A DNA stretch of 64,000 nt from a candidate division Zixibacteria bacterium HGW-Zixibacteria-1. Its GTDB lineage: Bacteria > Zixibacteria > MSB-5A5 > GN15 > PGXB01. This document shows positions 26,653 to 64,000 of this stretch, piece by piece. Both the position numbers and the translations under genes were made by a program. The DNA is taken from NCBI GenBank assembly GCA_002838945.1, contig PGXB01000017.1, positions 1,185-65,184 on the forward strand, in the 5' to 3' direction. The notes beneath the pieces are model-generated. The model was not told the DNA's origin, searched no databases, and saw nothing but the letters and a program-made list of their open reading frames with translations. How positions within the stretch are numbered: the stretch's first letter is position 1; each line of letters begins with the position of its first letter.

Positions 26653-29600
26653 TTATTTCAGTAGAAGCATCTTTTCCGTCCGGATGAAATCATCCGCCCG
26701 GAGGCGATAGAAATATACGCCGGTTGACACCGGTTTTCCATGTGAATCGTTTCCATCCCATATAATGGAATGATGCCCCGCTATGACGCGATCAGCAGTC
26801 AATACCCGGACTTTCTGTCCGAGAATGTTGTATATATCCATCTGCACATTGGCCGTACGGGGAAGATAGTACTCAATCGTCGTTGAAGGGTTAAAGGGAT
26901 TGGGATAGTTTTGGTACAATGCGAATTCATCCGGCAGAACAGGATCATCATCAGGCGCTGAAACCGGCGCCTGCTCGATGATCGTATTAATCAGATCACG
27001 GATATTCTCAGCTCCAAAAAACCAGGGATGCATAATAAATGAATAAACATCGGCATCCTCCATTGAATACCTGACGCCGCAGGGCATCCCTTCAAATTGC
27101 GATGTTTCCGGATAAAGCGAGCGATAGTAGTATATCGTCTCTGCGGGAGCCCGGGGGAAAAGGCAGCCGGTCATGGGCGGGGTTTCGATGGGCCATATAT
27201 ATGCCATATAGAAAGACGCATTCCACCAGTAAAAAGCGGTATCGACGTATAATTCCGGAAACTCATCAAGCGCAGGTTCGGCCCGAATTAACCCGCCAAG
27301 GGTATCCTCATCAGATATTATACCATCCGAGTAAAGCGTCAGCCCCAAAGTGCGCAGGGAATCGAGGTGCAGGATATCATATTCAAATATACCGGGCTGA
27401 AAGCGAAGAGTCAGAGTGTCGAGAAAAATGCTGGAATATCCGTTAAGGAGATTACCAAAATAGATCAGATTGCCGCCCGTATTAATATAGTCTTTCAAGG
27501 TATTTGTAAAAGAACCATAGACTTCATAATACAGGGTCGCATCTCGAAGATTATCATCAAAAAGAACAAAACGATACGGCGCCATTGTCGACCAGCCCAT
27601 GCAGGCATATTCCTCGCACCCATCCATACCCGCAGAATCGATGAGGAAGAAGTAGTCATATGTTAAATTCCGACCGGCAAAGACTCTGTCGTAAAAAGCC
27701 ATTAATGAATCAATGGACTGGACATTAATCGTTTTTCCCGCATTGGGCAAATATATCAGGATATCTTTATCGATCAAGTCGCGGACGAAGACATGTATCG
27801 GCGTGGACAACTCCGATTCGCGCCCGGCGGCGTCGACCGCAGTGATAAAATAATACAGGTCGGCATTCACGGCGCTGTCGATAAAAAGTGTGTCATCTGC
27901 CGGCACCGAAGCGATCGGTTCCATTTTGAAAAAATAAAGGGCCGTCGTATCATCGTCCTGAATATAGTAGGCCACACTGTCATAAGGATCACCCAGGTAC
28001 TCGGGCAATCTATAGACAGTCGGGCCGTAGCTTTTGCTGAACTCGCCATATCCGACCCTCTTGTATATATTATAGTGATCGATATCATCATCCGTCGGCA
28101 GCCAGCTAATCGTAAATAGGCCGCCTGCGCTAATATATTCGGTGGTGCTGTCGGTCATGGGCGGGTTGGGGAATCCATAGGTGAAATATGCCGGTTTTGA
28201 TTTCCGGCCCTCGCCGGCCGATGAGACCGTCGCCACCGAATAAAAATACATTAGACCTTCGGTGAGACCGTTGATGACATATTGCGTCCCGCTTATTACG
28301 GAATCAACATTATAGAGAACCATCGATGATGTATCGCGATATCTCAGAACGGTATCGGAGAAAAACGACTGACTATCAGGAACGGCAGCGATGTATATAT
28401 TATACCCGATCATATCGGGATGCTCGCGGGGCAACCATTGAATATGAACGCCGTCGCCCGCCACGCTGACAATCTCAGTGCCCTGCACCGACCCCAGAGG
28501 CGGCGCCAGGACATATTCCGATTCATAAAGCGCTTTTGCCGCTGCGGCATTTTTCTCCAGATCGGAAAAATCAAAATGATAATAAAGCTTTTCGGGCACT
28601 TCATTATCGAAATAATTGACGAAATCATCCGGTTCGACATGAACTTCTTCGCCGCCGACAAGAGCAAAAACGAACCTGACGGAATCGCCGGGCATCAAAT
28701 CAAAACCACCAAAGGAATACAAATAACGGAAGTCAAAACCACGGTCAAGATTGCCCCCGGATGTTGGATTCGGCAGCCAGTTTGGATCATCCTTCATGAA
28801 AGTCATCCAGAGAAAATCATAATCGATCTCACTGTTGGAAAGCAGGTAATACCGATCGCGATCGGTTGTCGGCTGACCGTTGCCGCCCCCGTCAAAAACA
28901 TACAATGGCTGCGAAGTGTCCCCGATATAACGCGGTCCCCAATCAGATCCACCATCAGTGGTCCGCATCCACCAGTTAAAACTGGTGTCGATCGCCGGGG
29001 GGGACATTTCAATCAACTTCATCCCGAAAACCCCTCTGATACTTTCCTCATTCCAGGTGTAATCGCCATTTATCAAAGGGTCACCATCATTATCCATGAT
29101 ATAAGCAATACCGCTAACCCGCCGCAGCCCGCCGAAATCGTCGGTATGGCCAAAAATGGGAATCGTGGTCATAGCATAAACATCGCAGTCAATGTAATAG
29201 CCGAACCAAGTATCAAAAATTGGATTGGGGCCGATGTTTCTTATTGTCAGCTCGTAAAGTATAAAATCATTATAGGGAGGCGTAACCCAGCTGCAGGTCC
29301 GCTCCCTGACGGCAAGTCCCTCGATTCGGGGGTCAAGGTAAAAGGACTCGCCGACAGTATCCGAATAAGTGGCGACGAATTGTTTGTCGGCCACACCGCC
29401 CTGCAGTCGCACTGTTCCCGGGCCGGCTTCATCGGGCCGGAATTCCTGAGAATAATAATTCCAGCCATTGGCGCCGGCCGAAACAATCGAGTCACCGTTG
29501 ACAACACCGCCAATCCAGAGCCCCCCGGCGAATAAATACTGCTGGTTGGACCTGGGCGGCATGACAAATGAAGTCGGAGGCAGGTCGCTTTCGGGATCAT

Positions 29601-29841
29601 CTATATAGCCGCTGAGAAATCTGAATCCCAATTGGCCGCTGCAATTGACGGTCATGCCTATGTTGCCATCCGAATGAACACCGACAAACTGCGGCCATTT
29701 GACGGGAAGCTGAGAGGCAGCGTTTGTTTTGGCGGTACCGCAAAATTGTGGAGAGAAGATGCTTCCTTCCGGATTGGCACAATTTGCCACAGGCGTTGTC
29801 AAAAAGATAAATAAAACTATGACCAGTGAAAGTTTACACAT
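26653..29841 (-). CDS. large secreted protein with FN3-like modules and a T9SS type-A C-terminal sorting domain
   Basis: I prefer start ATG 29841 (MCKLSLVIVLFIFLTTPVANC, a signal peptide); the ORF track extends to 30021. The C-terminus is YQNYPNPFNPSTTIEYYLP...GVYFYRLRADDFIRTEKMLLLK. Confidence 0.8.
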   Translation of the reverse strand: MCKLSLVIVLFIFLTTPVANCANPEGSIFSPQFCGTAKTNAASQLPVKWPQFVGVHSDGNIGMTVNCSGQLGFRFLSGYIDDPESDLPPTSFVMPPRSNQQYLFAGGLWIGGVVNGDSIVSAGANGWNYYSQEFRPDEAGPGTVRLQGGVADKQFVATYSDTVGESFYLDPRIEGLAVRERTCSWVTPPYNDFILYELTIRNIGPNPIFDTWFGYYIDCDVYAMTTIPIFGHTDDFGGLRRVSGIAYIMDNDGDPLINGDYTWNEESIRGVFGMKLIEMSPPAIDTSFNWWMRTTDGGSDWGPRYIGDTSQPLYVFDGGGNGQPTTDRDRYYLLSNSEIDYDFLWMTFMKDDPNWLPNPTSGGNLDRGFDFRYLYSFGGFDLMPGDSVRFVFALVGGEEVHVEPDDFVNYFDNEVPEKLYYHFDFSDLEKNAAAAKALYESEYVLAPPLGSVQGTEIVSVAGDGVHIQWLPREHPDMIGYNIYIAAVPDSQSFFSDTVLRYRDTSSMVLYNVDSVISGTQYVINGLTEGLMYFYSVATVSSAGEGRKSKPAYFTYGFPNPPMTDSTTEYISAGGLFTISWLPTDDDIDHYNIYKRVGYGEFSKSYGPTVYRLPEYLGDPYDSVAYYIQDDDTTALYFFKMEPIASVPADDTLFIDSAVNADLYYFITAVDAAGRESELSTPIHVFVRDLIDKDILIYLPNAGKTINVQSIDSLMAFYDRVFAGRNLTYDYFFLIDSAGMDGCEEYACMGWSTMAPYRFVLFDDNLRDATLYYEVYGSFTNTLKDYINTGGNLIYFGNLLNGYSSIFLDTLTLRFQPGIFEYDILHLDSLRTLGLTLYSDGIISDEDTLGGLIRAEPALDEFPELYVDTAFYWWNASFYMAYIWPIETPPMTGCLFPRAPAETIYYYRSLYPETSQFEGMPCGVRYSMEDADVYSFIMHPWFFGAENIRDLINTIIEQAPVSAPDDDPVLPDEFALYQNYPNPFNPSTTIEYYLPRTANVQMDIYNILGQKVRVLTADRVIAGHHSIIWDGNDSHGKPVSTGVYFYRLRADDFIRTEKMLLLK

Positions 29842-30584
29842 AGTCGAACATACGAAAGAAAACGGACAAGTACTCCGGCCCGGTTCAATAATTGGTCGTG
29901 AGGATTTTTTAAAACTAATGGCGGCAATAAAATGAGGTAATGAGCCAATCATGACAACCCTCCTGCTAAAGGTTGCCATCTTCTTTTCAATCTTAAGCTT
30001 AAGATACCCAGCCGATATCAAATGTCAACAAAAATCTATGTCTTGAAAAGATTAACTGCCAGTGTCCCAAAATTTAAGGGAGAATTTTATATTGAAGCTA
30101 TGTTCTTATTGAAGTGAGATATTTCAAAGCACATATTTAACGACATAATTTTGCCCCCGAAATGCCTCGTCGGATGCACTCTCATGCATACAATTGCATA
30201 GAAAATATGAACCGGTCTGCAGCAAACCTTTATAGCAATGATTATTATTGCCTCTTTTGGTCACAGCGGCTGTTTGCTCAAATATCAGCCAGAAATCGTA
30301 AGCACAATTATTCCAAGTAGTTATACGGGCCAGGAAATATCATTTCGGACAATACAACAATTTTTCCGGACAAAATTGAGATTATTTTCTTTATGGTCGG
30401 ATGGATTTTGGACAGGGCAAGGTAATTGCGTAATTAGTTGACGCAATAGTCATTTTGGTGAGATTCACAGGGTTGAAATTAACTTTTATAGATAGAGGTT
30501 ACATCAATCGCGGACAGCTGCGGAAAATTTGTTAAAAGAGTGTGAGAAAACAATTTCCGCGGGCCGCGAAGCTCCAAAAATAGC

Positions 30585-30612
30585 TTGACAGGACAACGTT
30601 TTCCGGTATATT
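30585..30612 (+). promoter_or_regulatory. possible sigma70-type promoter of the giant cargo gene
   Basis: TTGACA (30585-30590), 16-nt spacer, TATATT (30607-30612), about 185 nt upstream of ATG 30798. Confidence 0.35.
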
Positions 30613-30797
30613 AAAGTGATTTTTAAGAATACTTGCCTGGTTATAACGGAGTCTAATTAAACTCGATTTTTTTCGAGAACTGAATACTTGGTATATGAGT
30701 GACATTTTGGGAACAAAGCGAGTATTATCATATTCATCAAGCACCCTCACCACCAGTCACTGCTATCAGGAGCGTAATCGAACCTTTGGAGGAAATA

Positions 30798-33700
30798 ATG
30801 ATTAGGCCGAAACTGCTTTTGCGACTTGTGGTTTCCTTAATCTTTTTAAGTACCGCTATAGTTGTCAATGCCCTTGGGGAAACCAACAGCCCCCAGTTAA
30901 ATTTCTCGGAAAGCGACCAATCTCCGGGTGGAGATTATTTTGGCGCTGAAAGTGATTACATCACTCTGGCGCAAATTGAGATTGAACCGGAAGCCATCAC
31001 CGGCCAAACAGCGGAAGATGGTGCAATTTCCGATTGCCCAGATTGCCCGCCCGATTCAAAGCCTTATTTTGTTAACTTCACCGCGATCGACAGTATCTCT
31101 TTATGCGAAGGCCAGAGTATTTATGATACTTTTGTCGTAGTTGATTCGAACCTGAATCAGAAGGTCACGGTGGAGCTGCTGGCCGGTCCGGGGACATTAG
31201 TCTCGACCACCAGTCATCCACCCGTCAAGGCATATTATGAATTCACTCCCGAGACTGATGGAAGTTTCGAAATAACACTCCTGGCATATGACAGCAATGG
31301 TGACTCCACCATCGTCACAAAAACATATCAGGTTTTTGCCAATTTGAAGCCGATTATAACTTCCGGCGACACAACCTTTTTTAATTGTTTCGGCGGAAAA
31401 TATTATCATTATGACATCGACGCCTATGATCCGGACAGCAGCACATACTTGCGGTTCCGGTTGCTGTCACATCTTGGCACAATAAATTTTTATACCGGTG
31501 AATTGCAATTCTGGGCTGATCAGCCCGGCCAATATTGTTTCCTGGTGGAAGTTGCGGATAATTGCGGCGCGGATACGGCCGAAATATGCGTTGATATTGT
31601 TTTCAATTCAACCCCAATATTGAATAATCCTGATCAGGTGTTCCATATCTGTGCGCCGGATTCGATCTGTTTTGATATTTTCGCGACTGATCCCGATGGC
31701 GAAAATGTTATTATCACTCAACTCAGCGGCCCCGGTGCTTTCAATATGACAAGTGACACATCGGGCCAAACCTGTTTCTTGCCCGAATATGTCGATTCGG
31801 CCGATTATGTTTTTATTTATCAGGCGGTCGACAGCTGTCTGAGCGTCAAATGCAGTGAGGGCGAGCTATCCTGTCCTCCGATTCCCCTTGATACGGTCAT
31901 TATTACGGTTATCAGGGGAGAGACCGCCTTTTTAGCTTGTCCCAATGATACTTCATTGTTTATCTGTCAGCCGGATACTTTATGTTTCCCGCTGGGGGAA
32001 TTGCCTGAAGGAGCCATCGTCACAGTTGACCCGCCGTCCGCCTGGTATGATGCCCTTAACGGCACGGTCTGTTTCTATACGAATTGCACCGTCAAGAAAG
32101 ATATAAAAGTGGTTGTCGAATCGATCTGCGGTATGGACAGCTGCATGTTTGGGGTCAACGTTACCATGAATTCCGCCCCGCTGGTCATAGCGGCGCCGGA
32201 TACGGCTATGTCACTCTGCGACCCGGATGAAATATGTTTTGCCGTCGGCATCAGCGATGTTGATGATAATATTACACAAATTACCGTTACGCCGTCCGGG
32301 ATATACAATTCGATCACCGGGGAAGTCTGTTTCACCCCGGTCGGAGCCGGAACAAGCACGATAATTATTACTGCCATAGATGACTGCGGCGCTATTGATG
32401 CCGATTCAATCAATATCGATGTTACGTTGAATTCCAAGCCGACCGTCACTGCGACGACTGACACTGCAGTGTATTTCTGCAATATAGAAGAGATATGTAT
32501 TCCGGTGGAAATATCAGACGCCGATGACGATATCGTCGGAGTGTCTGTCAGCCCGTCCGGTTATTATGATTCCGAAAAAGGCGTGGTTTGTTTCACGCCC
32601 GACTCATCCGGTACCTTTGCCATTACTGTTAAGGCTGCCGACATATGTGGTTCCGAGGGGATGGCCACGATAAATGTCACGGTGGGGCTGGATAATCCGC
32701 CGGTTGTTATTTCTGCTGATGATAGTACCGTTTTCCTGTGCGAACTGGAGCAGATTTGTTTTCCTGTCAACATAACCGATCACGAGAATAATATTACCGC
32801 CATCAATGTTTATGGCGATGGCCGGTATGTTAACGGTTTTGTCTGTTTCACGCCGACGCAGTTCGGGGATTACACATTCATTATTCAGGCGGAAGATGAG
32901 TGCGGCAATCGTGGATCCGACACGACCATTATAAATGTGACCGTCAATTCCGCGCCGACCGTCGAAATGGAAAGCAGCCTGGAAGTATTCCAGTGCGTCT
33001 TCGAGCAAATTTGTATCGATGTCAATGTTTTCGACATCGATGATAATCTTACCGGCATATCGACCGATTTCGGTTCTTATGACGCCGAGAATAGAGTTGT
33101 CTGTTTCACGCCGTCCGCGGCGGGAACTTATATGATAACCGTTACGGCGACCGATGAATGCTATGCTTCCGGCAAAGACGTTATCTTTGTCACCGTCGTA
33201 AGCGGTGAGGGTGCTTCGATCGTGTGCCCGGATGGCCCGATCAGCAAGAGTCTCTGCGGCGCACAGACAATTTGTTACCCTCTTGAAGTTACTCCGGATG
33301 AGGTGGTGCTGTCTACATCCTATGGATCTATTACCGACAGCAGCCGGCTGTGTTTCACCGCCGATACGGCTGGAACATACATCATTAAAATCATTGCCGA
33401 CGCTGCCTGCGGCTCAGATACCTGTGAACTGGTCTTTAATGTCGACATGGGCGAGATTCCCGAAATCAGTTGCCCGGCCGATACCGCCGTCAGCCTTTGC
33501 GGCGCCGATGCGATCTGCCTGCCGATAGAAATATCCCCGGCCAGTGCCAATATCACCGTTTCGCCGGCTGGATATTATGAGAACGGTTCGATCTGTTTCG
33601 ATGTCGATTCTTCCGGTCACTATGAAATTACGATCGTGGCCGATAATGATTGCGGCGCTGACACCTGTTCATTCGCAGTTGAGGTTTCCTTCAACGGGGC

Positions 33701-36700
33701 ACCCGATATCATCTCGGGCGACACCGCTATGTTTATTTGCGAGCCATCTATTATAAATTATCCGGTCATCGCCAATGATTTCGAAAGCGATCCAATTACT
33801 TACTCGCTCGTTTCCGGACCCGGAAGTATAAATCCTGAAACCGGCTTGATAAGTCTCAATGCCGAATCATCCGGGAAATACTGCTTTGCAGTTGCGGCCT
33901 CGGATTTCTGCGGAAGTGATACAGTCGAAATATGCATAACCGTGGCGATTAACAGCGCTCCGGTCGTGGTTTCGCCTGAAGATTTTCAGATTAAACTCTG
34001 CCAGCCGTCACCGCAATGTTTCCCGGTGGATATCACCGATATCGACGATAATATTTCCGGTATGACGGTAAGTAAGGGCTCCTATTCGCACAAATATGTC
34101 TGCTTTACGCCTGACACGAGCGGCATCTATCAGTTTGTTATTACCGCAACCGATTCCTGCGGCGCCAGTGATGCCGATACAACAATCGTTGAAGTTATTT
34201 TGAACACCGCCCCGGTGGTCACATCAGCTCCCGATTTCGACACGATGCTTTGCGATCTTGGCGAAATTTGCGTCGATGTCGATATTTTCGATGCCGAAGA
34301 TAATATTCAATCAATATCGTCTTATACAGGTTACTATAATATCGAAACAAAACAGGTCTGTTTCAGTCCCGAGATCGAAGGCATCTATTATATTATCACG
34401 ACCGTTTCCGACTCCTGCTTTTCATCCGATGTCGATACGACAATCGTTACTGTCACTCTTGACCAGTCTCCTGCAATTACATGTCCCTTTGACCCGGCGA
34501 ATATCAGAATCTGCCAGGCTCAGGACTTCTGCTTCCCCATCGAGATTAGTCCATCGAGCGCTTTGGTCACGACTTCATATGGCGCATATTCCGATGGTCA
34601 GCTCTGCTTTATGGCCGATTCGAGCGGCATGTATGTCATCATGATAACAGCGGAAACCTCTTGCGGAACCGATACCTGCTACGCCGCTTTTGATGTCGTC
34701 ATCGGCGAGACTCCACAGTTGACTTGTCCTGCCGATACTACCATTGAGCTTTGCGCCCCCGAGAAAATATGTCTCCCGGTAAGTATGACGCCTTCAAATG
34801 CCTCTATTAACGTGTCGCCGGGCGGTTACTACGAAAATGGTTCAATCTGTTTCGATGCCGAGACTTCCGGCCATCATGAATTTCTCGTGACTCTTGAGAA
34901 CGATTGCGGGACCGATAGCTGCTCATTTGCAGTCGATGTCGTGCTCCAGGGTACTCCGATAATAGTTGCTGAAGACACGTCCATGTTTATCTGTAAACCG
35001 GGCACAATTGAATATCAAATAAACTTAACCGAAAACGGTAATAATCCGACCGCGTTTACATTGATTGCCGGAGCCGGCGAGGTCAACAGCCAGAGCGGTT
35101 TGCTGAATTTTGCGGCCGATACCTCCGGTTTATATTGTTTCACTGTCGCGGCAGCGAATGATTGCGGCGCCGATACGGCCGACTTCTGTATCGACATCAC
35201 CCTCAATAGCCGGCCGGTGGTCATTTCAGCGGAAGATTTTCAGATTAATCTCTGCAAGCCATCGCCGCAGTGTTTTCCTGTGAGCGTTTCTGATTTCGAC
35301 GGCAATATTGCGGGCATTAGTGTTAATACCGGCGCATATTCGCACGGCTATGTTTGTTTCACGCCTTATACCAGCGGTCAATACACATTTATCATAACGG
35401 CGACAGATTCCTGCGGCGCGACGGCAATGGATACCACGGTGATTAATGTTGTCATGAACACGACTCCGATCGTTGTTTCGGCTCCGGATATCGACACCTT
35501 CCTGTGCAGTCTGGATGATATTTGCGTTGATGTCGAAATTATTGATGCCGAAGGGAATATAAAGTCGATTACCAATAATATTGGGCAGTTCAATTTCGAA
35601 ACAAATCAGATTTGCTTTACACCGGACGGTGAAGGGACATATTATCTGGTTACAACCGCCGTCGATTCCTGTGGCAAATCGGATGCCGATACCACTATCG
35701 TTAACGTTACAATGGGTGAGGGCGCCTCGATAACATGCCCGATTGATCCAGCCGATGTCTTCCTTTGCCAACCCCAGGAATTCTGCTTCCCGCTGGAAAT
35801 CACAGCCCAGTCGGTCAGCACCTCTTATGGCTCATATTCCGCGGGACAATTGTGTTTCTATGCCGACAGCAGCGGCACTTATGTTATTGAAGTTATTGCC
35901 ACTACCGAGTGCGGATCGGACACCTGTTATGTAACCTTCAATATTTCATTAGGGGAGACGGTCAGTATTACCTGCCCTCCCGATACATCAATGACAATCT
36001 GCGGACCGGAGACAATTTGTCTGCCGGTTATGGTTTCGCCGGTTAATGCGGCTGTCACTGTCTCGCCGTTTGGAACATATCAGGAAGGCCATGTCTGTCT
36101 CGATATCGAGCAGGCCGGGAATTATGAGTTTACACTGACGGCACAGACTGATTGCAGCCTTGATTCCTGCTCCTTTGCCGTCAATGCACAGTTTAATAGA
36201 GCGCCGGAACTTATTGCGAGCGACACTTCTATTTATAACTGCAGCCTTGCCGAAACATATCAGTACCAGGTTAGGGCCTCGGATTTCGAAAACGACATAA
36301 TCAACTTTGATCTTATTTCTCCTATTGGAAATATTAATCCGACGACCGGTCTGATTACGTTTTCGGCTGACTCGGCAGGCACATACTGCTTTAACGTCGT
36401 CGCCAGTGACGCATGCGGCGCCGACACTGCCACGATATGTATCGCCCTTGATCTGAATTCGCCCCCGGTGGTAATTGCCGCAAATGATACCACTGTTATT
36501 ACCTGCGATTATTCCGAAATCTGCATTCCGGTCGATGCTTATGATTCCGATGGCAACCTGGATGCAGTTACATCAAATTCCGGCAGCTATGCCGATGGCC
36601 TGGTCTGTTTCAGTGCCGACGGGGCAGGCGTTTATGCCATAATCGTAACGGCCGTTGATATTTGCGGCGCCACCGATGTTGATACTGCTATCGTGACGGT

Positions 36701-39700
36701 TGTCGAGGGACAGTCACTGTCACTTCAGTGTCCGCCTGATACATCGATCTTTATTTGTAATCCGGATACCCTTTGCATACCGGTGGACGGTATTCCTGAA
36801 GGGGCAATCGTGACCGTCAATCCTCAATCCGCCTGGTATGATGCCTCTCAGCAGACCGTATGTTTCTATACAAATTGTTCGGTCGAAAAAGATTTGAAAA
36901 TAATAGCCAGGACCGATTGTGCCGTCGACAGTTGCACTTTCTCCGTCAATGTCACCATGAATTCCGCGCCCCTGGCCATTATGCAGCCGGATACGGTTCT
37001 GTCGCTTTGCGCTCCGAAAACGATTTGTCTGGCGGTCGGTATTTCCGATGTGGATGATAATATTATCGCAGTCGAGGTTTCGCCGGGTGCAGCTTATAAC
37101 GAAATTACCGGGACCGTTTGCTTTACGCCCAATATCGGCGGAAAACACGTGATCAAAGTTCGCGCGGTGGATGCCTGTGGCATGTACGATCTCGATTCGA
37201 CGGTGGTCACGGTAAACTTCAACTCAATTCCTCAGGTAATTGTACCCTCTGAATACGATGCCTTCGTCTGTGAAATAGATGAAGTTTGTTTCCCGGTCGA
37301 AATAATCGACGCCAACAACAATATTACCAATATTTCGGTCTCGCCCTCAGGCCAGTACGACCCCGCAACGGGAGAAGTGTGCTTTACGCCGGAGGCCGAC
37401 GGGACATATCGAATTGTCATTACTGCGACCGATGCCTGCGGATATATTGCTTCCGACACCACCAGCGTAAACGTAATTATGAATCGGCCGCCTGTTATAA
37501 CGGCCGCGGACACAACCGTTTTCTCGTGCAGCAGAATCACTGTTTGCGTTCCGATCAACGCGCAGGACCCGGACGGCAACTTATCGAAAACCACCGTCAC
37601 GGGAGCCGGTTATTATGGCGGTTATGCTTGTTTCTCGACATCAGTATCCGGTATTCGTCAGCTTATCATCAAGGCCGTCGATTCCTGCGGCGCCATTGAC
37701 ATGGATACGATATATGTGAACACCATAATAAATTCGGCTCCGCTGGTTATTTCCGGACCCGACACTTTGGTCTTTCAGTGTGTTTTCAGTGATATCTGTA
37801 TCGATGTGGATATCTCCGACATCGATTATAATATTACGACTATAGAGACAAATTACGGTTCTTATGACGCCTTGTCACATACGGTATGTTTCACGCCGAC
37901 CGAAGCCGGAACTTATGAAATAATCACCACAGTTCATGACGCCTGCGGACTTGTCAGTGAAGACCGGACCATTGTAACAGTCGAAACCGTTGCACCGCCG
38001 CAAATAGACTGCCCGTTTGAACCGGTGGCCAAATATCTCTGCGGTCCGGGACTTGTTTGCTACGAATTGGGAGTTTCTCCGGCTAACACCATCGTTACGA
38101 CTTCTTATGGCAACTTTGAAAACGGAAATCTGTGTTTCCAGGCCGATACTGCGGGAATATATGTTATTAATGTCACCGCGGAAACAGCCTGCGGAAACGA
38201 TGAATGCGCTTTGACGTTTAATGTAGTAATCGGCGAGGATGCTGTGGTTTCATGTCCTGCCGATACCGCCATATTCCTCTGCGGTGCAGGGCAAATATGT
38301 CTACCGGTTGCAGCTTCACCCGAATACGCTCAAATTACGGTTTCGCCGACAGGCGCCTATTCGGACGGGATGGTCTGTTTCAGCGCCGACACGGCCGGGA
38401 CATATCGACTGCTGGTCGTAGCCGCGACCGACTGTGGTTCCGATTCCTGCACGATCCGGGTCGATGTCGAGTTCAATGCGGCCCCGGTCGTCAATGCCGG
38501 AAATGACACGACCTATTTCCAGTGTGATTTGCAGGAAATCTGCCATAAGATCAATATCGTTGACTCCGATAATTCCATAGATTCGATAAAAGTAATGCCT
38601 TTTGGAACGTACAGCGAACTGACCGGTTCGGTTTGTTTCATGCCGCCCGATACAGGCCTGTACTGTTTCACTGTGACAGCTTATGACGAATGCGGCGCGA
38701 CGGATTCGGATGAATTCTGCGTAACGATTACGACCGGTCCTGCGGCTGATATTCAATGTCCGACGGCGCCCATTTACAAGAGGATCTGCGACCCCGGTGA
38801 TATATGCGTCCCGCTGACCATAACACCGGCCTCGGCCAATATCACCGTTTCCTTCGGCCATTATTCAAACGGCTCACTCTGCTTCTACGCCGACACCGCC
38901 GGACTTTATAACATCAGAGTCATTGCTTCCGATATTTGCGGGGCCGACACCTGTAATGTGGCAGTTAATGCGGCCTTTGATGCGTATGTTTCAATTGGCT
39001 GCCCCAGTCTGCCGGTTTCCGTATCACTGTGCCAGCCAGATACGGTCTCGATTCTTGTCCCGATTACACCATCGTCGGCATCATTGACTATTCAACCGGC
39101 GGGCATTTACAACTTCCAGACGAAGATGCTTAAATTCTTTGCCGATACTTCGGGCCATTATGTAATAAAGGTTATTGCCGGCACACCCTGCAGCATCGAT
39201 ACCTGTGTTATCGAAGCGGATGTCAGTCTATATCAGGTTCCGCAGATAACCTGCCCCGGCAACATCGATACCCTGATCTGTTTATCCGAAACGTCGGAAA
39301 TCTGTTTCCCGGCCGGTGTGGTGGGAGCCGAAGTAACCATAAAAATCCTGCCGGCCGGCAGCTATAGCGGGGGCATGGTTTGTATCCCGGTGACTTCGGC
39401 AGGGCTTCATCGGGTAACCATCATCGCCTCATCCCAGTGCGGCGCCGATACCTGCATAACGAACGTAAACGTCCGGGCCAACGCAGCGCCGGTTCTGACC
39501 GTTCCCGCGGACATTGTCGTTCCCTGGTGTGACGATGAAACCGAACCGCTCTGCATCGACGGCATTTTTGCCAAAGACAATAATGGCGATGCCCTTACGA
39601 TTACCAAAGTGTGCGGCATGGGCACATACACCCCGATCCGGGCCGACAGCGGAATTATCTGCTTTGATCCGCCTAATATTGATTCAACATATGAGTTCTG

Positions 39701-41273
39701 TGTCGAGGTGACTGACGGTTGTTCGACGGATCTCCAATCCTTCCTTGTGACCATATTTACCTCGCCGCTTTGCTCCGTCTGTGTGGATATTTCGATTGAA
39801 GTCGATTCCTGTCATGTGGTCGGATCCAATGTCCCCGTGAGAATCATGGCCGAAACTCGTAATCCAATAGGCGGTTTTGACCTGCTGATCGGATACGATG
39901 CTTCCGTGCTTTCGTTTACGTATGCGGTTCAGGGTGATGATATTGATCAGTGGGAATATTTCACTTACCGGCTGATTACCGACGCCACCTGCGGTTCAAG
40001 TTGCCCGTCCGGTCTGGTAAGGCTGGTCGGTATTGCCGACCAAAATAACGGGCCATATCACCCGCCGACGGAACAGCTTTCACCGAATGGAATTCTATCG
40101 GTCATAGGGTTGCGTATCGCCAACAATCAGAATCTTGGCGGTCAGTATCTGCCAATCAACTTCTACTGGATTGATTGCGGCGATAATTCGCTGGCCAATC
40201 CGATCGGTGACCAGTTGTACATTGATTCCAGGATATATAACAGTTCCGGCGGTATGTTGTGGGATGAATTCGCTGACAATCAGTATCCCGAGACATCTCG
40301 TCCACTTGGTCTGGGTGCTCCCGACGAGTGCCTTGAGGGTGACAAGACTGCCCCTATAAGATGTGTTTATTTCCATAATGGCGGCATCTGTGTTACGCAT
40401 CCGGACTCGATCGACGCCCGCGGTGATGTTAACCTGAACGGCGTGGCCTATGAAATCGCTGATGCGGTAGTCTTCACCAACTATTTCATCTATGGGGTCT
40501 CGGCCTTCACGACAAATATAGCCGGACAGACTGCGGCCACCGATGTCAATGCCGACGGCTTTACTCTGACCGTGGCCGATCTGGTCTACCTGGTACGCGT
40601 AATTATAGGCGATGCTTCGGCGATTCCGAAAGTATCTCCCAGTATGCTTGAGGTTGATTTGACGGTTACCGAAAGAAATAACAAACTCTCGATCGCGGCC
40701 GAAAGTGAATGCCCGGTCGGAGCGGTCCTGCTCGTCTTTGAATACGACGGCGTGATTCCTGAAATGCCTATTTTAGGCAATATGGCCAATGATATGAGAA
40801 TGGCTTACAGAATAGGCGATAATGAAATACGCGTCCTGATCTACAGCTTCGATAAAGGCCAGGCAATTGAAGCGGGTGAAGGAGAGATTATATCGATCAA
40901 TTACAGCGGCAAGGGACATATTTCGCTGGTGGAAACGGCCATGGCCAGCTATCACGGTGATATTATAAGGACAAGCAAAATCGAAGACCTGCTGCCGTCG
41001 ACATTCTCCGTCAGCCAGAACTATCCCAACCCGTTCAATCCGGCAACATCGATTGACCTATCACTGCCGGTTGCCTGTCACTGGGAGTTGAACATATATA
41101 ATATCAACGGCCAGCTCGTCAGAGGGTTTGACGGCGAGGCCCAGCCCGGAATCGTCACTGTAACATGGGATGGACGGAACGATGGCGGCCAGATGGCGGC
41201 ATCGGGAGTGTATTTCTATAAAGTGCAGGCCGGAGAGTTTACGGCCAAAAAGAAAATGACCCTGCTCAAATAA
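30798..41273 (+). CDS. giant (about 3,491 aa) Cys-rich Ig-like-repeat surface protein with cohesin-like and dockerin-like modules and a T9SS C-terminal sorting domain
   Basis: Uninterrupted ORF. GGAGGA RBS precedes ATG 30798, followed by the signal peptide MIRPKLLLRLVVSLIFLSTAIVVNALG. I hand-count about 34 modules of roughly 85 aa. It ends QNYPNPFNPATSIDL...GVYFYKVQAGEFTAKKKMTLLK. Confidence 0.85.
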   Translation: MIRPKLLLRLVVSLIFLSTAIVVNALGETNSPQLNFSESDQSPGGDYFGAESDYITLAQIEIEPEAITGQTAEDGAISDCPDCPPDSKPYFVNFTAIDSISLCEGQSIYDTFVVVDSNLNQKVTVELLAGPGTLVSTTSHPPVKAYYEFTPETDGSFEITLLAYDSNGDSTIVTKTYQVFANLKPIITSGDTTFFNCFGGKYYHYDIDAYDPDSSTYLRFRLLSHLGTINFYTGELQFWADQPGQYCFLVEVADNCGADTAEICVDIVFNSTPILNNPDQVFHICAPDSICFDIFATDPDGENVIITQLSGPGAFNMTSDTSGQTCFLPEYVDSADYVFIYQAVDSCLSVKCSEGELSCPPIPLDTVIITVIRGETAFLACPNDTSLFICQPDTLCFPLGELPEGAIVTVDPPSAWYDALNGTVCFYTNCTVKKDIKVVVESICGMDSCMFGVNVTMNSAPLVIAAPDTAMSLCDPDEICFAVGISDVDDNITQITVTPSGIYNSITGEVCFTPVGAGTSTIIITAIDDCGAIDADSINIDVTLNSKPTVTATTDTAVYFCNIEEICIPVEISDADDDIVGVSVSPSGYYDSEKGVVCFTPDSSGTFAITVKAADICGSEGMATINVTVGLDNPPVVISADDSTVFLCELEQICFPVNITDHENNITAINVYGDGRYVNGFVCFTPTQFGDYTFIIQAEDECGNRGSDTTIINVTVNSAPTVEMESSLEVFQCVFEQICIDVNVFDIDDNLTGISTDFGSYDAENRVVCFTPSAAGTYMITVTATDECYASGKDVIFVTVVSGEGASIVCPDGPISKSLCGAQTICYPLEVTPDEVVLSTSYGSITDSSRLCFTADTAGTYIIKIIADAACGSDTCELVFNVDMGEIPEISCPADTAVSLCGADAICLPIEISPASANITVSPAGYYENGSICFDVDSSGHYEITIVADNDCGADTCSFAVEVSFNGAPDIISGDTAMFICEPSIINYPVIANDFESDPITYSLVSGPGSINPETGLISLNAESSGKYCFAVAASDFCGSDTVEICITVAINSAPVVVSPEDFQIKLCQPSPQCFPVDITDIDDNISGMTVSKGSYSHKYVCFTPDTSGIYQFVITATDSCGASDADTTIVEVILNTAPVVTSAPDFDTMLCDLGEICVDVDIFDAEDNIQSISSYTGYYNIETKQVCFSPEIEGIYYIITTVSDSCFSSDVDTTIVTVTLDQSPAITCPFDPANIRICQAQDFCFPIEISPSSALVTTSYGAYSDGQLCFMADSSGMYVIMITAETSCGTDTCYAAFDVVIGETPQLTCPADTTIELCAPEKICLPVSMTPSNASINVSPGGYYENGSICFDAETSGHHEFLVTLENDCGTDSCSFAVDVVLQGTPIIVAEDTSMFICKPGTIEYQINLTENGNNPTAFTLIAGAGEVNSQSGLLNFAADTSGLYCFTVAAANDCGADTADFCIDITLNSRPVVISAEDFQINLCKPSPQCFPVSVSDFDGNIAGISVNTGAYSHGYVCFTPYTSGQYTFIITATDSCGATAMDTTVINVVMNTTPIVVSAPDIDTFLCSLDDICVDVEIIDAEGNIKSITNNIGQFNFETNQICFTPDGEGTYYLVTTAVDSCGKSDADTTIVNVTMGEGASITCPIDPADVFLCQPQEFCFPLEITAQSVSTSYGSYSAGQLCFYADSSGTYVIEVIATTECGSDTCYVTFNISLGETVSITCPPDTSMTICGPETICLPVMVSPVNAAVTVSPFGTYQEGHVCLDIEQAGNYEFTLTAQTDCSLDSCSFAVNAQFNRAPELIASDTSIYNCSLAETYQYQVRASDFENDIINFDLISPIGNINPTTGLITFSADSAGTYCFNVVASDACGADTATICIALDLNSPPVVIAANDTTVITCDYSEICIPVDAYDSDGNLDAVTSNSGSYADGLVCFSADGAGVYAIIVTAVDICGATDVDTAIVTVVEGQSLSLQCPPDTSIFICNPDTLCIPVDGIPEGAIVTVNPQSAWYDASQQTVCFYTNCSVEKDLKIIARTDCAVDSCTFSVNVTMNSAPLAIMQPDTVLSLCAPKTICLAVGISDVDDNIIAVEVSPGAAYNEITGTVCFTPNIGGKHVIKVRAVDACGMYDLDSTVVTVNFNSIPQVIVPSEYDAFVCEIDEVCFPVEIIDANNNITNISVSPSGQYDPATGEVCFTPEADGTYRIVITATDACGYIASDTTSVNVIMNRPPVITAADTTVFSCSRITVCVPINAQDPDGNLSKTTVTGAGYYGGYACFSTSVSGIRQLIIKAVDSCGAIDMDTIYVNTIINSAPLVISGPDTLVFQCVFSDICIDVDISDIDYNITTIETNYGSYDALSHTVCFTPTEAGTYEIITTVHDACGLVSEDRTIVTVETVAPPQIDCPFEPVAKYLCGPGLVCYELGVSPANTIVTTSYGNFENGNLCFQADTAGIYVINVTAETACGNDECALTFNVVIGEDAVVSCPADTAIFLCGAGQICLPVAASPEYAQITVSPTGAYSDGMVCFSADTAGTYRLLVVAATDCGSDSCTIRVDVEFNAAPVVNAGNDTTYFQCDLQEICHKINIVDSDNSIDSIKVMPFGTYSELTGSVCFMPPDTGLYCFTVTAYDECGATDSDEFCVTITTGPAADIQCPTAPIYKRICDPGDICVPLTITPASANITVSFGHYSNGSLCFYADTAGLYNIRVIASDICGADTCNVAVNAAFDAYVSIGCPSLPVSVSLCQPDTVSILVPITPSSASLTIQPAGIYNFQTKMLKFFADTSGHYVIKVIAGTPCSIDTCVIEADVSLYQVPQITCPGNIDTLICLSETSEICFPAGVVGAEVTIKILPAGSYSGGMVCIPVTSAGLHRVTIIASSQCGADTCITNVNVRANAAPVLTVPADIVVPWCDDETEPLCIDGIFAKDNNGDALTITKVCGMGTYTPIRADSGIICFDPPNIDSTYEFCVEVTDGCSTDLQSFLVTIFTSPLCSVCVDISIEVDSCHVVGSNVPVRIMAETRNPIGGFDLLIGYDASVLSFTYAVQGDDIDQWEYFTYRLITDATCGSSCPSGLVRLVGIADQNNGPYHPPTEQLSPNGILSVIGLRIANNQNLGGQYLPINFYWIDCGDNSLANPIGDQLYIDSRIYNSSGGMLWDEFADNQYPETSRPLGLGAPDECLEGDKTAPIRCVYFHNGGICVTHPDSIDARGDVNLNGVAYEIADAVVFTNYFIYGVSAFTTNIAGQTAATDVNADGFTLTVADLVYLVRVIIGDASAIPKVSPSMLEVDLTVTERNNKLSIAAESECPVGAVLLVFEYDGVIPEMPILGNMANDMRMAYRIGDNEIRVLIYSFDKGQAIEAGEGEIISINYSGKGHISLVETAMASYHGDIIRTSKIEDLLPSTFSVSQNYPNPFNPATSIDLSLPVACHWELNIYNINGQLVRGFDGEAQPGIVTVTWDGRNDGGQMAASGVYFYKVQAGEFTAKKKMTLLK
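31917..33690 (+). repeat. left copy of a dispersed intragenic duplication of about 1.77 kb (7 modules: B-like, A, A, A, A, B1, B2)
   Basis: It is collinear, module by module, with 36705-38475. Example: ...CPNDTSLFICQPDTLCFPLGELPEGAIVTVDPPSAWYDALNGTVCFYTNC versus ...CPPDTSIFICNPDTLCIPVDGIPEGAIVTVNPQSAWYDASQQTVCFYTNC. End coordinates are approximate. Confidence 0.75.
33201..36704 (+). repeat. in-frame higher-order tandem repeat: supermodule B1-B2-C-A-A of about 1.25 kb (about 418 aa), 2 full copies plus a third lacking the last A
   Basis: Equivalent positions (9 codons before the first Cys of B1) fall at 33201, 34458 and 35712, giving periods of 1257 and 1254 nt. Copies are diverged but clearly alignable by eye. 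Confidence 0.75.
36705..38475 (+). repeat. right copy of the dispersed intragenic duplication of about 1.77 kb
   Basis: Same 7-module order as 31917-33690, offset by about 4.79 kb. Nearly identical length (1771 versus 1774 nt by my boundaries). Confidence 0.75.
39777..40180 (+). other. cohesin-like module within the giant protein
   Basis: VCVDISIEVDSCHVVGSNVPVRIMAETRNPIGGFDLLIGYDASVLSFTYAVQGD matches the cohesin-type signature (x-G-F-x-L-x-x-x-Y-D-x-x-x-L) by eye. Confidence 0.45.
40425..40610 (+). other. dockerin-like duplicated Ca-binding segment within the giant protein
   Basis: Two EF-hand-like repeats: DVNLNGVAYEIADAVVFTNYFI and DVNADGFTLTVADLVYLVRVIIG. Confidence 0.55.
40992..41270 (+). 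other. T9SS type-A C-terminal sorting domain of the giant protein
   Basis: LPSTFSVSQNYPNPFNPATSIDLSLP...VTWDGRNDGGQMAASGVYFYKVQAGEFTAKKKMTLLK. Confidence 0.8.
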
Positions 41274-41308
41274 ATCTGACTATTGCGGTACATATTTCCT
41301 TCAAAGGA

Positions 41309-41340
41309 GAGTCGGTCGATCATCGACCGGCTCTTTCTTT
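41309..41340 (+). terminator. hairpin terminator between the convergent giant gene and rlmH
   Basis: GAGTCGGTCGA-TCA-TCGACCGGCTC (11-bp stem with one G-U pair), followed by TTTCTTTATTT. Confidence 0.55.
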
Positions 41341-55254: not shown

Positions 55255-55581
55255 ATGAGCAAACCGGTCGAGATTAGTGACGCTACTTTTGATTCTGAAG
55301 TAATAAAATCAGAGGTTCCGGTTATTGTCGATTTCTGGGCGCCCTGGTGCGGTCCGTGCAAAATGATTGCGCCTATCCTGGAGGAAATTGCAAAGGACTA
55401 CAACGGAAAGGTTAAAGTAGCCAAGATGGATGTTGATACCAATACACAGATAGCCAGCCAGTACAAAATTATGTCGATACCTTCGCTCTTGATATTCAAG
55501 GATGGCAAACTGGTGGACCAGGTTGTCGGCGCCCTTCCCAAGGCTCAATTACTTAACCATTTGACAAAGGTCATTGGCTGA
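55255..55581 (+). CDS. trxA: thioredoxin
   Basis: DFWAPWCGPCK active site. 108 aa. Confidence 0.93.
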   Translation: MSKPVEISDATFDSEVIKSEVPVIVDFWAPWCGPCKMIAPILEEIAKDYNGKVKVAKMDVDTNTQIASQYKIMSIPSLLIFKDGKLVDQVVGALPKAQLLNHLTKVIG

Positions 55582-58478: not shown

Positions 58479-60401
58479 TCAATGCACCTTGCGCATTTCG
58501 GCAATCATTTCATCCGGTCCAACAACCCCCTGCATAATTCTCTGAACATTGCCTTCTGAATCCAGCAACAGGGTCGTTGGAAGCGAATAGTGCTTCATAC
58601 CGAACCGCATCATGAAATCATTGGTCTCGGGCGTGCCCGATTTTTCGAGCTGGATTTTTAAGGGATAGAACCTTTCGGACTCGGCGGCAACCTCGAGATT
58701 CCCAAATGTTTTCTTCTCAAGAACACGACAGTTAACGCACCAGGTCGCCCACGTATCAATCAGTACCGGCTTGCCCTGAGATCTGGCTTCAGCCAAACCC
58801 ATCTCCAAATCGGTTTTCCATGGAATTAGTTTCTCCTCGACGCGGGAAGAATTCCCCATTGCGCCACCCGCGAAACTGACCCCCTCCGGCAGTAGAAAGC
58901 CGCTGCCTAACATTGTGCCGAGAAGCAGGTAGGCACCGACCAAAAAGGCCAGAATGCCAAGATATTTCTTCAATCGTGGAAAGAGTCCGTCCTCGGATGT
59001 CAGCCTGTCGAAGGCGCCCCCGAATACGGCAAAGGCAACTAACAACAATCCGGCCATGACGGCAAACCAGACCGGCGAAATAATCGTACGCAGGAAGTAG
59101 AGAGCCATGAAAAGGAGAACGAACCCGAAAAAGCCCTTGACCGTCTCCATCCATGTTCCGGCACCCGGAAGGGCGCTGATCGCCGATGAAAATGTGCCAA
59201 TTAAAATATATAGAGTCCCCAGACCGATCGCAAAAACAAACAGGGTAATGAAGCCGAATATCGGTGAACCATAGGTGGCTATATACAGAAGTATCCCGGC
59301 TACAAAGGGACCGACACATGGTGACACCACCAAAGCCGCCACAATGCCCAGGACTATTGATCCACCCACACCGCCGCCGGCCTGTTTGGTTCCCAGCTTC
59401 TGGCGTAAAGAATAAGGTACCTGCAATTCATACACGCCGAACATCGACAGGGCAAATATTACAAAAACAACGGCAATGCCGATGACGACTGCGGGACTGG
59501 CCAGCCAGGCGCCGAAAACACCGCCCACGAGCGATACAATCAGACCCATTATTCCATACATTACCGCCATGGAACCAACATAAAACAGGGATAATATGAA
59601 TCCTTTCCCGATACTTCGATCCTGCCCCGCGAAAATCGACACAGTGATTGGAATCATGGGATAAGTACAGGGAGAAAATGACAACAGTAAACCGGTAATA
59701 AAGGCCAATCCAAGGGCCAGGAAATAACCCCAAAAACCATATTTTTCGATTAGTCGCCCAAGGTCAGATTCCTGCTCAGCGCCGGCCGGTGACGGTTTAC
59801 CACTATCGCTGAAAGTAATCTTCGCGGCAAATACTTCCTGGTTGATCGGCTGTCCTTCGACACCGACGGTAACGGCTATCACATCGGAAAGCGTCATAGG
59901 CGGCCGACATTCCTTGTCATTACAGGCCTGATAGGTAAAAAGTACCGGGACGGTGTAATCGCCTCCGGCAGTATTTTCATCAACGGCCAGGCTGAATCGG
60001 ATAATGACACTATCGTTATAGACCGACATATTCTCGCCGAGCAGAAAAATGGTTGATGCCCCGGTGAAAGTGATATTTAACGGCGTAAACTCATTGGTTG
60101 TATCGATATGAAGCTCCGCCGGTATAAGCCAGTCTTGAAATGGTTTTACTGAATTGATGTGCCAGTTTTCTTTAATATTGATGATTACCGCCGCGTCATA
60201 GGTTTTGCCGGGTTGCAGGGAACTATTGGAAATTACCGTTATAATCTCGGCCAGTTGCTCCTCCTGTGCATTTCCAAAATCACCGAAAACACCGTTGGAA
60301 GCGGCTGCCGGTATCGCGGCGGCGAAATAAGTCATCGCCAAAACCATGATAAAACATATCCATAAAACGGGCTTATAATGATTTTTCATCGATCTGGTCA
60401 A
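58479..60401 (-). CDS. dsbD: protein-disulfide reductase DsbD family
   Basis: Signal peptide and an N-terminal periplasmic domain. The TM core carries SFSPCTYP and VVSPCVGP. The C-terminal thioredoxin fold carries WATWCVNCR. Confidence 0.85.
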   Translation of the reverse strand: MTRSMKNHYKPVLWICFIMVLAMTYFAAAIPAAASNGVFGDFGNAQEEQLAEIITVISNSSLQPGKTYDAAVIINIKENWHINSVKPFQDWLIPAELHIDTTNEFTPLNITFTGASTIFLLGENMSVYNDSVIIRFSLAVDENTAGGDYTVPVLFTYQACNDKECRPPMTLSDVIAVTVGVEGQPINQEVFAAKITFSDSGKPSPAGAEQESDLGRLIEKYGFWGYFLALGLAFITGLLLSFSPCTYPMIPITVSIFAGQDRSIGKGFILSLFYVGSMAVMYGIMGLIVSLVGGVFGAWLASPAVVIGIAVVFVIFALSMFGVYELQVPYSLRQKLGTKQAGGGVGGSIVLGIVAALVVSPCVGPFVAGILLYIATYGSPIFGFITLFVFAIGLGTLYILIGTFSSAISALPGAGTWMETVKGFFGFVLLFMALYFLRTIISPVWFAVMAGLLLVAFAVFGGAFDRLTSEDGLFPRLKKYLGILAFLVGAYLLLGTMLGSGFLLPEGVSFAGGAMGNSSRVEEKLIPWKTDLEMGLAEARSQGKPVLIDTWATWCVNCRVLEKKTFGNLEVAAESERFYPLKIQLEKSGTPETNDFMMRFGMKHYSLPTTLLLDSEGNVQRIMQGVVGPDEMIAEMRKVH

Positions 60402-63955: not shown

Positions 63956-64000
63956 AATATCTCCATTCAAGGTCTAAAAGAATTCAATATAAGTAAAACG

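Follow-up and report, generated by a model that had tools for sequence, protein, structure and literature searches.

A giant cysteine-rich Ig-repeat cargo of the type IX secretion system in Zixibacteria, predicted to form a disulfide-locked surface fibre

The window analysed here, a 64,000-nucleotide stretch of contig PGXB01000017.1 from candidate division Zixibacteria bacterium HGW-Zixibacteria-1, contains on its forward strand a giant gene (30798..41273) consisting of a single open reading frame (ORF), stop codon included and free of internal stops, which encodes a protein of 3,491 aa referred to hereafter as P0001. The protein is an uncharacterised variant of the giant immunoglobulin (Ig)-repeat fibres or adhesins that exit the cell by way of a type IX secretion system (T9SS), and we put the probability that it is a disulfide-locked, T9SS-exported cell-surface fibre, most likely an adhesin, at about 0.6. 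The original prediction, made from the letters of the window, had described an uninterrupted ORF with a ribosome-binding site, a signal peptide and a T9SS-type C-terminus, all of which were recovered (Table 1).

The longest frame of the ORF opens at a GTG codon (30699); the ATG at 30798 is the start codon with a GGAGG ribosome-binding site ahead of it and a signal peptide behind it, the latter displaying a basic n-region, a 14-residue hydrophobic core and a VNA/LG cleavage site when the translation was read by eye. The charge of P0001 is strongly acidic (442 D+E versus 99 K+R), and 178 of its residues (5.1%) are cysteines, which bears out the extrapolation of well over a hundred. Within the otherwise disordered, acidic distal N-terminus lies a CPDC (CxxC) motif at aa 80-83 (31035-31046) that is conserved in the orthologue P0002.

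Table 1. Features of the giant gene and its product, with coordinates in the window.
Feature	Position	Strand	Remarks
Promoter-like TTGACA-N16-TATATT	30585..30612	+	~185 nt 5' of start codon; consensus scan 11/12, pattern match only
Ribosome-binding site GGAGG	30788..30792	+	5 nt ahead of ATG, read from sequence
Coding sequence of P0001 (giant protein)	30798..41273	+	3,491 aa; syntenic orthologue 3,462 aa
Predicted Sec signal peptide, aa 1-26, cleaved between MIRPKLLLRLVVSLIFLSTAIVVNA and LG	30798..30875	+	Read from translation
Acidic N-terminal (distal) segment, aa 27-86	30876..31055	+	Without family match
34-module Cys-rich Ig-like (cadherin/PKD-like) array, aa 87-2986	31056..39755	+	HMM segmentation, AF2, Foldseek
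C-terminal cassette, aa 2987-3405	39756..41012	+	>60 loci, AF2, Foldseek, Pfam
Cohesin-like β-sandwich	39783-40394	+	AF2 and Foldseek
Dockerin-like helical pair, loops DVNLNG and DVNADG	40425-40442, 40542-40559	+	AF2, sequence
Second β-sandwich of cassette	40647-40985	+	AF2
T9SS type-A C-terminal sorting domain, aa 3409-3487	41022..41258	+	TIGR04183, PF18962, FlgD_ig
Terminator-like hairpin, 14-bp stem then T-rich run	41306..41336	+	Between giant gene and convergent rlmH; pattern match only

The bulk of the protein is an array of tandem modules holding 164 of the 178 cysteines. Hidden Markov models (HMMs) derived from family alignments resolved it into exactly 34 non-overlapping modules of ~85 aa each, in agreement with the earlier hand count of about 34, in the order CCABAAAABBCAABBCAABBCABAAAABBABBBA; regular expressions for the three cysteine patterns, namely C-x5-C-x28-31-C-x18-C (type A), C-x8/9-C-x5-C-x~25-C-x18-C-x4-C (type B) and C-x47-C-x8-C-x7-C (type C), recovered 29 modules. 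Three tandem AABBC super-repeats lie within the array (32685-33944, 33945-35198 and 35199-36452), and modules 4 (31917-32162) and 23 (36708-36953) are “B2” variants with seven cysteines each and an extra CFYTNC.

The three recurring module types of the original prediction persist as three cysteine patterns but not as three separate domain families, a possibility that was discarded when A and B modules were aligned by hhalign with a probability of 99.3% (E 1e-20) and the C-module HMM was found to cross-match the A-like modules of a paralogue. From the homology of A and B it follows that the module types are a single cadherin/PKD-like Ig domain in several cysteine-pattern versions. When P0001 as a whole was compared with Pfam, it gave summed weak matches to K319L-like PKD, PKD, Y_Y_Y and Big_9. 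The sums for PKD, K319L-like PKD and Big_9 (58.8, 49.6 and 42.0 bits) exceed the respective cut-offs (27, 23.5 and 23.6), with no individual stretch of P0001 above cut-off for any of these three families in the scan. None of the isolated modules reached a Pfam threshold either: type A came closest with Big_9 (E 0.007) and K319L-like PKD (E 0.11), and for types B and C no related Pfam family was matched. The proposed likeness of type C to cadherin-like and He_PIG domains was not sustained, the matches on P0001 (E 0.069 for Cadherin, 0.085 for He_PIG) being far short of the Pfam cut-offs. Type B had been thought reminiscent of HYR domains, with which it shares an Ig-like extracellular module, four conserved cysteines and a “CP” opening; this kinship was rejected, given that neither HYR (PF02494) nor HYR_4C (PF23237) was matched at E <= 0.1 in the Pfam scan of P0001 and that hhalign of the B modules with a paralogue's true HYR_4C repeats yielded a probability of 1.8%. 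In that paralogue (contig C31, 54303-60914, forward strand), a second cysteine-rich giant of 2,203 aa and 116 Cys, true HYR_4C/HYR repeats stand beside A-like modules, a copy of the C-terminal cassette and a sorting domain.

Among solved structures, the nearest to the module-A profile by sequence is the cadherin-like module of SraP (PDB 4m03, E 1e-4). Many A modules contain a D-x-D/E-x-N motif that may bind Ca2+; together with the “N-x-x-P-V” module start it recalls the Ca2+ sites of cadherins, a resemblance only. With the bacterial cadherin-like, PKD and Big_9 domains (Pfam PF17963, PF22352, PF00801) the modules share a predicted β-sandwich fold, the sums of weak matches over the whole protein being above cut-off, whereas their fixed pattern of four to six cysteines and the predicted pair of cysteines at the module junctions fall outside the definitions of those families.

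Structure prediction of one module of each type had been suggested alongside the original prediction; a stretch encompassing all three types (aa 1047-1470, modules A-A-B-B-C) was modelled by AlphaFold2 (AF2) from a 20-sequence alignment as five β-sandwiches with a mean pLDDT of 90.3. The top Foldseek ranks of this model were contactins and, at E 1e-14 to 1e-16, titin I65-I70 and cadherin/protocadherin ectodomains (TMq up to 0.54 for the protocadherin ectodomains), and the base of the T9SS fibre protein GhpA (PDB 9fly) was matched at E 2e-12. At ~4 nm per module, the rod would be roughly 130-150 nm long. The predicted β-sandwich fold and an above-threshold sorting domain together uphold the description of P0001 as a giant T9SS cargo of Ig-like repeats.

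The behaviour of the cysteines was followed in 3,181 distinct modules cut from 121 family members and aligned by type. The second and third cysteines of a module (C2 and C3) are present or absent jointly (phi 0.96-0.98), as are the extra cysteine of type B (Ca) and C5 (phi 0.81), and in type C a pair on the F- and G-strands (phi 0.99) substitutes for C2-C3, the two pairs being mutually exclusive (phi about -0.5). The count of cysteines is even in 93% of A, 87% of B and 91% of C modules of the family set, and in 30 of the 34 modules of P0001. Strands B and E of the canonical Ig fold are neighbours within one sheet; going by the strands that AF2 predicts, the C2-C3 pair falls on these two and would thus suit a cross-strand disulfide. 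A bias towards even numbers of cysteines is an accepted bioinformatic sign of disulfide bonding (PMC2823432). Moreover, all 178 cysteines of P0001 are retained in P0002 at an identity of only 63.7%.

The two remaining cysteines, C1 and C4, appear to link neighbouring modules, a feature overlooked by the original prediction. Each is present in ~97-98% of modules of the family set. A disulfide between C1 and C4 of the same module was considered and dropped in favour of one between C1 of a module and C4 of the next, for which phi is 0.70 as opposed to 0.05 for the two cysteines of a single module; pairing the other way round, C4(n) to C1(n+1), gave -0.01. Thirty joint losses of C1(n) and C4(n+1), spread over nine sequence clusters, were observed where the base rates predict fewer than one by chance. 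In 55 of 101 proteins the opening module keeps C1 without C4, and in module 1 of P0001 the lone Cys103 was placed at C1 by reading the sequence, the C4 position being occupied by D-S-N-G. Strand positions in the AF2 model locate C1 just past strand A' and place C4 within the F-G turn; as the A'-B turn of the canonical Ig fold is at the C-terminal end of the domain and the F-G turn at its N-terminal end, C1(n) and C4(n+1) would both be situated at the junction. A disulfide is hence predicted at each module junction, and the predicted map comprises one such bond per boundary plus one or two within each module, about 85 in total. In the modelled stretch, the junction partners would be Cys1068-Cys1207, 1152-1289, 1239-1370 and 1319-1456, and those within modules 1074-1102, 1158-1188, 1229-1294, 1245-1270, 1310-1375, 1325-1351 and 1447-1464. 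The cysteines act as structural pairs, being gained and lost together, even in number and fully kept in the orthologue, and to this extent the disulfide-stapled surface fibre of the original prediction holds; that the pairs are disulfides is what we infer.

Giant fibres of this general kind are known from other bacteria. SprB and the RemA-type proteins of Flavobacterium johnsoniae are very large, repetitive surface filaments of Ig-like repeats exported by the T9SS; SprB, whose sorting domain is of type B (CHU_C-like), is driven over the surface by the gliding motor. P0001 differs from SprB in its type-A sorting domain (TIGR04183) and in the presence of the cassette, and the gliding motor genes GldL and GldM were undetected in its genome, with control genomes likewise blank. 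SprB/RemA-type adhesins have been likened to GhpA, the “grappling hook” protein of Aureispira, a T9SS fibre whose stem, as cryo-electron microscopy revealed, is stiffened by intramolecular disulfides joining Ig-like domains that lie close together (bioRxiv 10.1101/2024.01.29.577165). GhpA and P0001 alike are giant Sec/T9SS cargo proteins that end in a sorting domain and have a long tandem Ig-like stem. The likeness is one of fold, sequence kinship not being established, and GhpA stems from Bacteroidota whereas P0001 belongs to Zixibacteria; GhpA forms a hollow stem of seven subunits bearing distal hooks, the comparison with P0001 covering sequence and predicted fold. Anchoring of GhpA has been proposed to proceed through PorP/PorE homologues encoded downstream of ghpA (bioRxiv 10.1101/2024.01.29.577165), in place of which P0001 has a cohesin-dockerin cassette and a gene that stands alone. 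On the side of P0001, the genome lacks DsbA, DsbB and VKOR. Since GhpA already has inter-domain disulfides, the design principle is a known one; new here are the variant of the domain, the phylum in which it occurs, the cassette and the lack of every known oxidase.

With regard to export, the sorting domain ends four residues short of the C-terminus of P0001 and scored 42.2 bits with TIGR04183 (cut-off 23), 28.6 bits with Pfam Por_Secre_tail (PF18962; cut-off 27) and 35.6 bits with FlgD_ig; judged by its sequence, P0001 is a type-A cargo of the T9SS. The genome (3.83 Mb in 82 contigs, 96.7% complete) encodes SprA/Sov (486.7 and 134.1 bits in neighbouring matches, 620 together, cut-off 200), a full-length PorU (663 bits, cut-off 420) and, directly downstream of PorU, a PorV/PorQ-family barrel (NF033709, 253.7 bits, cut-off 90) that falls short of the PorV equivalog cut-off (183.8 versus 250), along with 65 ORFs bearing a TIGR04183-type sorting domain. 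The PorU gene starts a run on the reverse strand of contig C3 (102348-118319) that may be an attachment-complex operon. Behind it come the PorV-family barrel (948 aa, considerably extended at its N-terminus), then a cargo gene matched best, below the family cut-off, by a family of T9SS-dependent, inactivated M6-like metalloproteases, next a pair of DUF5683-like proteins and one with NHL repeats, and finally a protein of 1,086 aa in which one stretch faintly resembles SprA.

From these elements the following course may be proposed. P0001 would cross the inner membrane via Sec by means of its signal peptide, its type-A C-terminal domain would be recognised, and the protein would pass through the SprA translocon of the T9SS, whereupon PorU and PorV presumably cut off the sorting domain and fix the protein at the surface. 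The body would be a strongly acidic rod of 34 cadherin/PKD-like β-sandwich modules; one or two predicted disulfides would close each module internally (C2-C3, from strand B to strand E; Ca-C5 among type B modules; or the F-G hairpin pair of type C), and the predicted C1(n)-C4(n+1) bond would tie it to its neighbour; the ~85 bonds would make the rod stiff and resistant to proteases and shear. The cell-proximal cohesin-dockerin-sandwich cassette would probably dock the fibre to itself or to six other cassette proteins.

Several observations weigh against this account. The co-variation of C1(n) and C4(n+1) is imperfect, with 20 losses of C1 only and six of C4 only; related sequences inflate phi, and only ~9 of the co-loss events look independent. 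The odd count of seven cysteines leaves one without a predicted partner in each of the two B2 modules, and no even-cysteine bias is seen over the 65 T9SS cargo proteins of the genome (31 even, 30 odd). The T9SS core genes, a search for which the original prediction proposed, were recovered in part only. SprA, PorU and the PorV/PorQ-family gene are present. Of the motor and ring genes (PorK/L/M/N), GldK, GldL and GldM were searched: GldL and GldM found no match in the genome, but the control genomes were blank too, so their absence is not shown; GldK is represented solely by a weak, isolated 72-bit match of FGE-sulfatase type outside any operon, beside which a gldKLMN operon was looked for and was not there. 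Lastly, neither DsbA (DSBA PF01323; DsbA-like Thioredoxin_4 PF13462) nor DsbB nor VKOR was detected in the genome, with positive controls.

It has also been considered that the protein is chiefly a scaffold, akin to a cellulosomal scaffoldin or an S-layer-type matrix, whose cassette builds a multi-protein surface lattice with the six other cassette proteins while the rod serves as a spacer rather than an adhesin. The cohesin-dockerin cassette is a recurring unit, which the original prediction had overlooked, and it is on this unit that the scaffold explanation is founded: of the 121 family members 119 have it, as do seven ORFs of this genome, and its conservation (37-69% identity across >60 loci) equals or exceeds that of the rod. 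One of these ORFs (contig C42, 30005-33559, forward strand) encodes a T9SS cargo of 1,184 aa that consists almost wholly of the cassette, repeated 2.5 times in tandem, together with a sorting domain; it could serve the remaining cassette proteins as scaffold or anchor. The AF2 model of the cassette (pLDDT 84.4) predicts the cohesin fold with confidence, Foldseek retrieving cohesins for its sandwich at TMt 0.7-0.79 and E 1e-7 to 4e-11, the best being the type II cohesin dyad of PDB 3l8q (E 4e-11). The sequence matches of both cohesin and dockerin, however, are below threshold (E 0.01-0.05). Pfam Cohesin scored 14.3-14.5 bits on P0001 against a cut-off of 24.1 and was matched by 24 of 40 homologues at E <= 0.01, and the only match of the helical piece was Dockerin_1 (16 bits, E 0.014, cut-off 22.9), its loops DVNLNG (aa 3210-3215) and DVNADG (aa 3249-3254) lying 39 residues apart in predicted helices. 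A 34-module rod keeping every cysteine further suggests strong selection on the rod itself, and a fibre could be docked and adhesive alike, such that the scaffold explanation overlaps the fibre account; taken as the chief function, scaffolding seems rather unlikely.

In its predicted fold the cassette is similar to the cellulosomal cohesin-dockerin systems (Clostridium thermocellum CipA; Acetivibrio cellulolyticus ScaA, PDB 3l8q), the predicted cohesin resembling type I cohesins at the TMt values above and the dockerin-like piece carrying two D-x-N-x-D-G loops. Unlike cellulosomes, P0001 has both modules in one polypeptide, in the fixed order of cohesin, dockerin, sandwich and sorting domain, and is a T9SS cargo of a Gram-negative host with sub-threshold sequence scores and cysteine-rich inserts in its cohesin-like domain.

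A second alternative holds that the cysteines stay reduced in an anoxic habitat, acting as thiol ligands for metals, for metal-sulfide or iron mineral surfaces, or as a redox buffer or sensor, with disulfides arising only upon meeting oxidants. The absence of DsbA, DsbB and VKOR speaks in its favour, all the more so since, among 50 other genomes with a family member, DsbB was found in none and VKOR in six, and so does the lack of an even-cysteine bias in the other cargo proteins. The genome moreover looks anaerobe-like or microaerobe-like. A CydA-like ORF (contig C16, 48601-49947) is the only oxidase-type motif found, no A-type haem-copper oxidase motif being seen in the genome by a search for the motifs GRQPW and GHPEVY that is indicative only. 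Multihaem cytochrome gene clusters (contig C67, 171092-179562; contig C40, 78047-92023; by motif search, as many as 21 CxxCH motifs in a product of 883 aa) suggest extracellular electron transfer. The oddity of so much cysteine beside anaerobe-style genes, already pointed out in the original prediction, is thereby sharper than claimed, with no DsbA, DsbB or VKOR detectable.

The suggestion that the DsbD and thioredoxin of the window might service the folding of P0001 is hard to maintain. DsbD brings reducing power in, and multihaem cytochromes need DsbD/CcdA-type reduction. The DsbD of the window (58479-60401, reverse strand; DsbD_TM 190 bits, with a C-terminal thioredoxin-like domain containing CVNC) and its thioredoxin (55255-55581, forward strand; cytoplasmic TrxA type, WCGPC) form a reducing pathway. 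A role as folding helpers is unlikely because the thioredoxin is signal-less and DsbD imports reducing power for the multihaem cytochromes. Exported thioredoxin-fold proteins of WCGYC, WCPPC and WCVWC types are encoded elsewhere in the genome and are candidate isomerases or an unrecognised oxidase.

Set against the reduced-thiol alternative is the manner in which the cysteines are gained and lost, strictly by twos and in mutually independent pairs, which fits covalent pairs better than metal sites with three or four ligands; the placement of C2-C3 on strands B and E would likewise suit a cross-strand disulfide, and GhpA, a fibre of the same kind, has real disulfides (bioRxiv 10.1101/2024.01.29.577165). 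An essential disulfide between PorK and PorG is made in the envelope of Porphyromonas gingivalis, a member of the same superphylum that lives as an obligate anaerobe (PMC12365241), from which it follows that disulfides without DsbA/DsbB are possible, though unexplained. On balance, the reduced-thiol alternative appears quite improbable, and the disulfide-locked fibre is preferred.

That the giant ORF is an artefact of mis-joined or collapsed repeats is barely credible: the assembly is of the metagenome-assembled kind, in 82 contigs, and the protein that the gene encodes is highly repetitive, but the DNA repeats inside the gene are only 60-80% identical, making repeat collapse unlikely, and the chimera raised as a possibility in the original prediction is ruled out by P0002, which has the same 34-module order and matching flanks (rlmH, yjbQ, ftsY, smc) and was found on a contig from ENA and on another from Logan, in addition to which at least 265 giant homologues were found at E <= 0.001, the 120 listed measuring 1,933-4,184 aa.

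Where named, the giant homologues listed are mostly Zixibacteria or GN15, the others being labelled just “bacterium”. In species-representative genomes, 253 matching stretches were retrieved, the majority labelled Zixibacteria; they include many automated third-party annotation records labelled Ignavibacteriales and single records of Calditrichaeota, Candidatus Deferrimicrobium and the “FCB group”. A search for related loci with the P0001 sequence alone returned nothing, an alignment query being required, and an exhaustive profile search returned 1,012 clusters (50% identity) at E <= 1e-30 and 6,887 at E <= 1e-10, with at least 4% cysteine in 115 of 134 new top matches. A literature search on Zixibacteria in combination with T9SS, type IX secretion or cysteine-rich proteins found no paper, and in the literature searched the family has neither a name nor a study.

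Upstream of the giant gene lies a divergent T9SS cargo gene, and downstream rlmH, a UPF0047/YjbQ-family gene, ftsY, smc and rodZ. Given the divergent cargo on one side and the housekeeping genes on the other, the giant gene looks monocistronic. The upstream cargo (26653-30021, reverse strand; 1,122 aa, 12 Cys) combines fn3 and a sorting domain with 500 N-terminal residues without family match, and the spacer between the two genes amounts to ~780-955 bp depending on the choice of start codon. Near the end of the window, a gene for an outer-membrane barrel of the FadL/TodX type (62373-63455, reverse strand; Toluene_X, 59 bits) overlaps the end of a small lipoprotein gene (63440-63970), the latter without family match.

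Elsewhere in the genome, cysteine exceeds 5% in only three of the 65 T9SS cargo proteins. The third cysteine-rich cargo (contig C59, 81831-84836) has 53 Cys in 1,001 aa and a sorting domain as its sole domain match. On contig C58 (73892-96943, reverse strand), six adjacent large genes encode A/C-like modules with almost no cysteine (one product of 2,822 aa has a single Cys), and therefore the same fold occurs without cysteine staples in this genome; two of the six also bear the cohesin-dockerin-sandwich cassette.

Giant T9SS fibres have been studied almost solely in Bacteroidota, and the present family is a large one that is mostly of Zixibacteria/GN15 where named. If the junction disulfides are real, they would offer a simple and general way to build a rod of more than 100 nm from small domains, with GhpA as the experimental precedent. 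The abundance of the family in genomes without DsbA/DsbB/VKOR also makes the oxidation of exported proteins testable with a defined, highly sensitive substrate, and the cassette suggests cellulosome-like docking on a Gram-negative surface. A bolder proposition, speculative and on present evidence somewhat unlikely, is that Zixibacteria routinely make fibres with ~85 disulfides, one per junction, without DsbA/DsbB/VKOR, through either an undescribed route of oxidative folding or bonds triggered by extracellular oxidants. In the former case, if true, the exported thioredoxin-fold proteins, for example the WCGYC protein on contig C53 (30585-31151), would be the candidates; in the latter, the fibre would be redox-switched, staying flexible in anoxia and stiffening where it meets oxic or Fe(III) interfaces. 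In combination with the cassette, this would, if true, amount to an undescribed cell-surface assembly system across the whole phylum.

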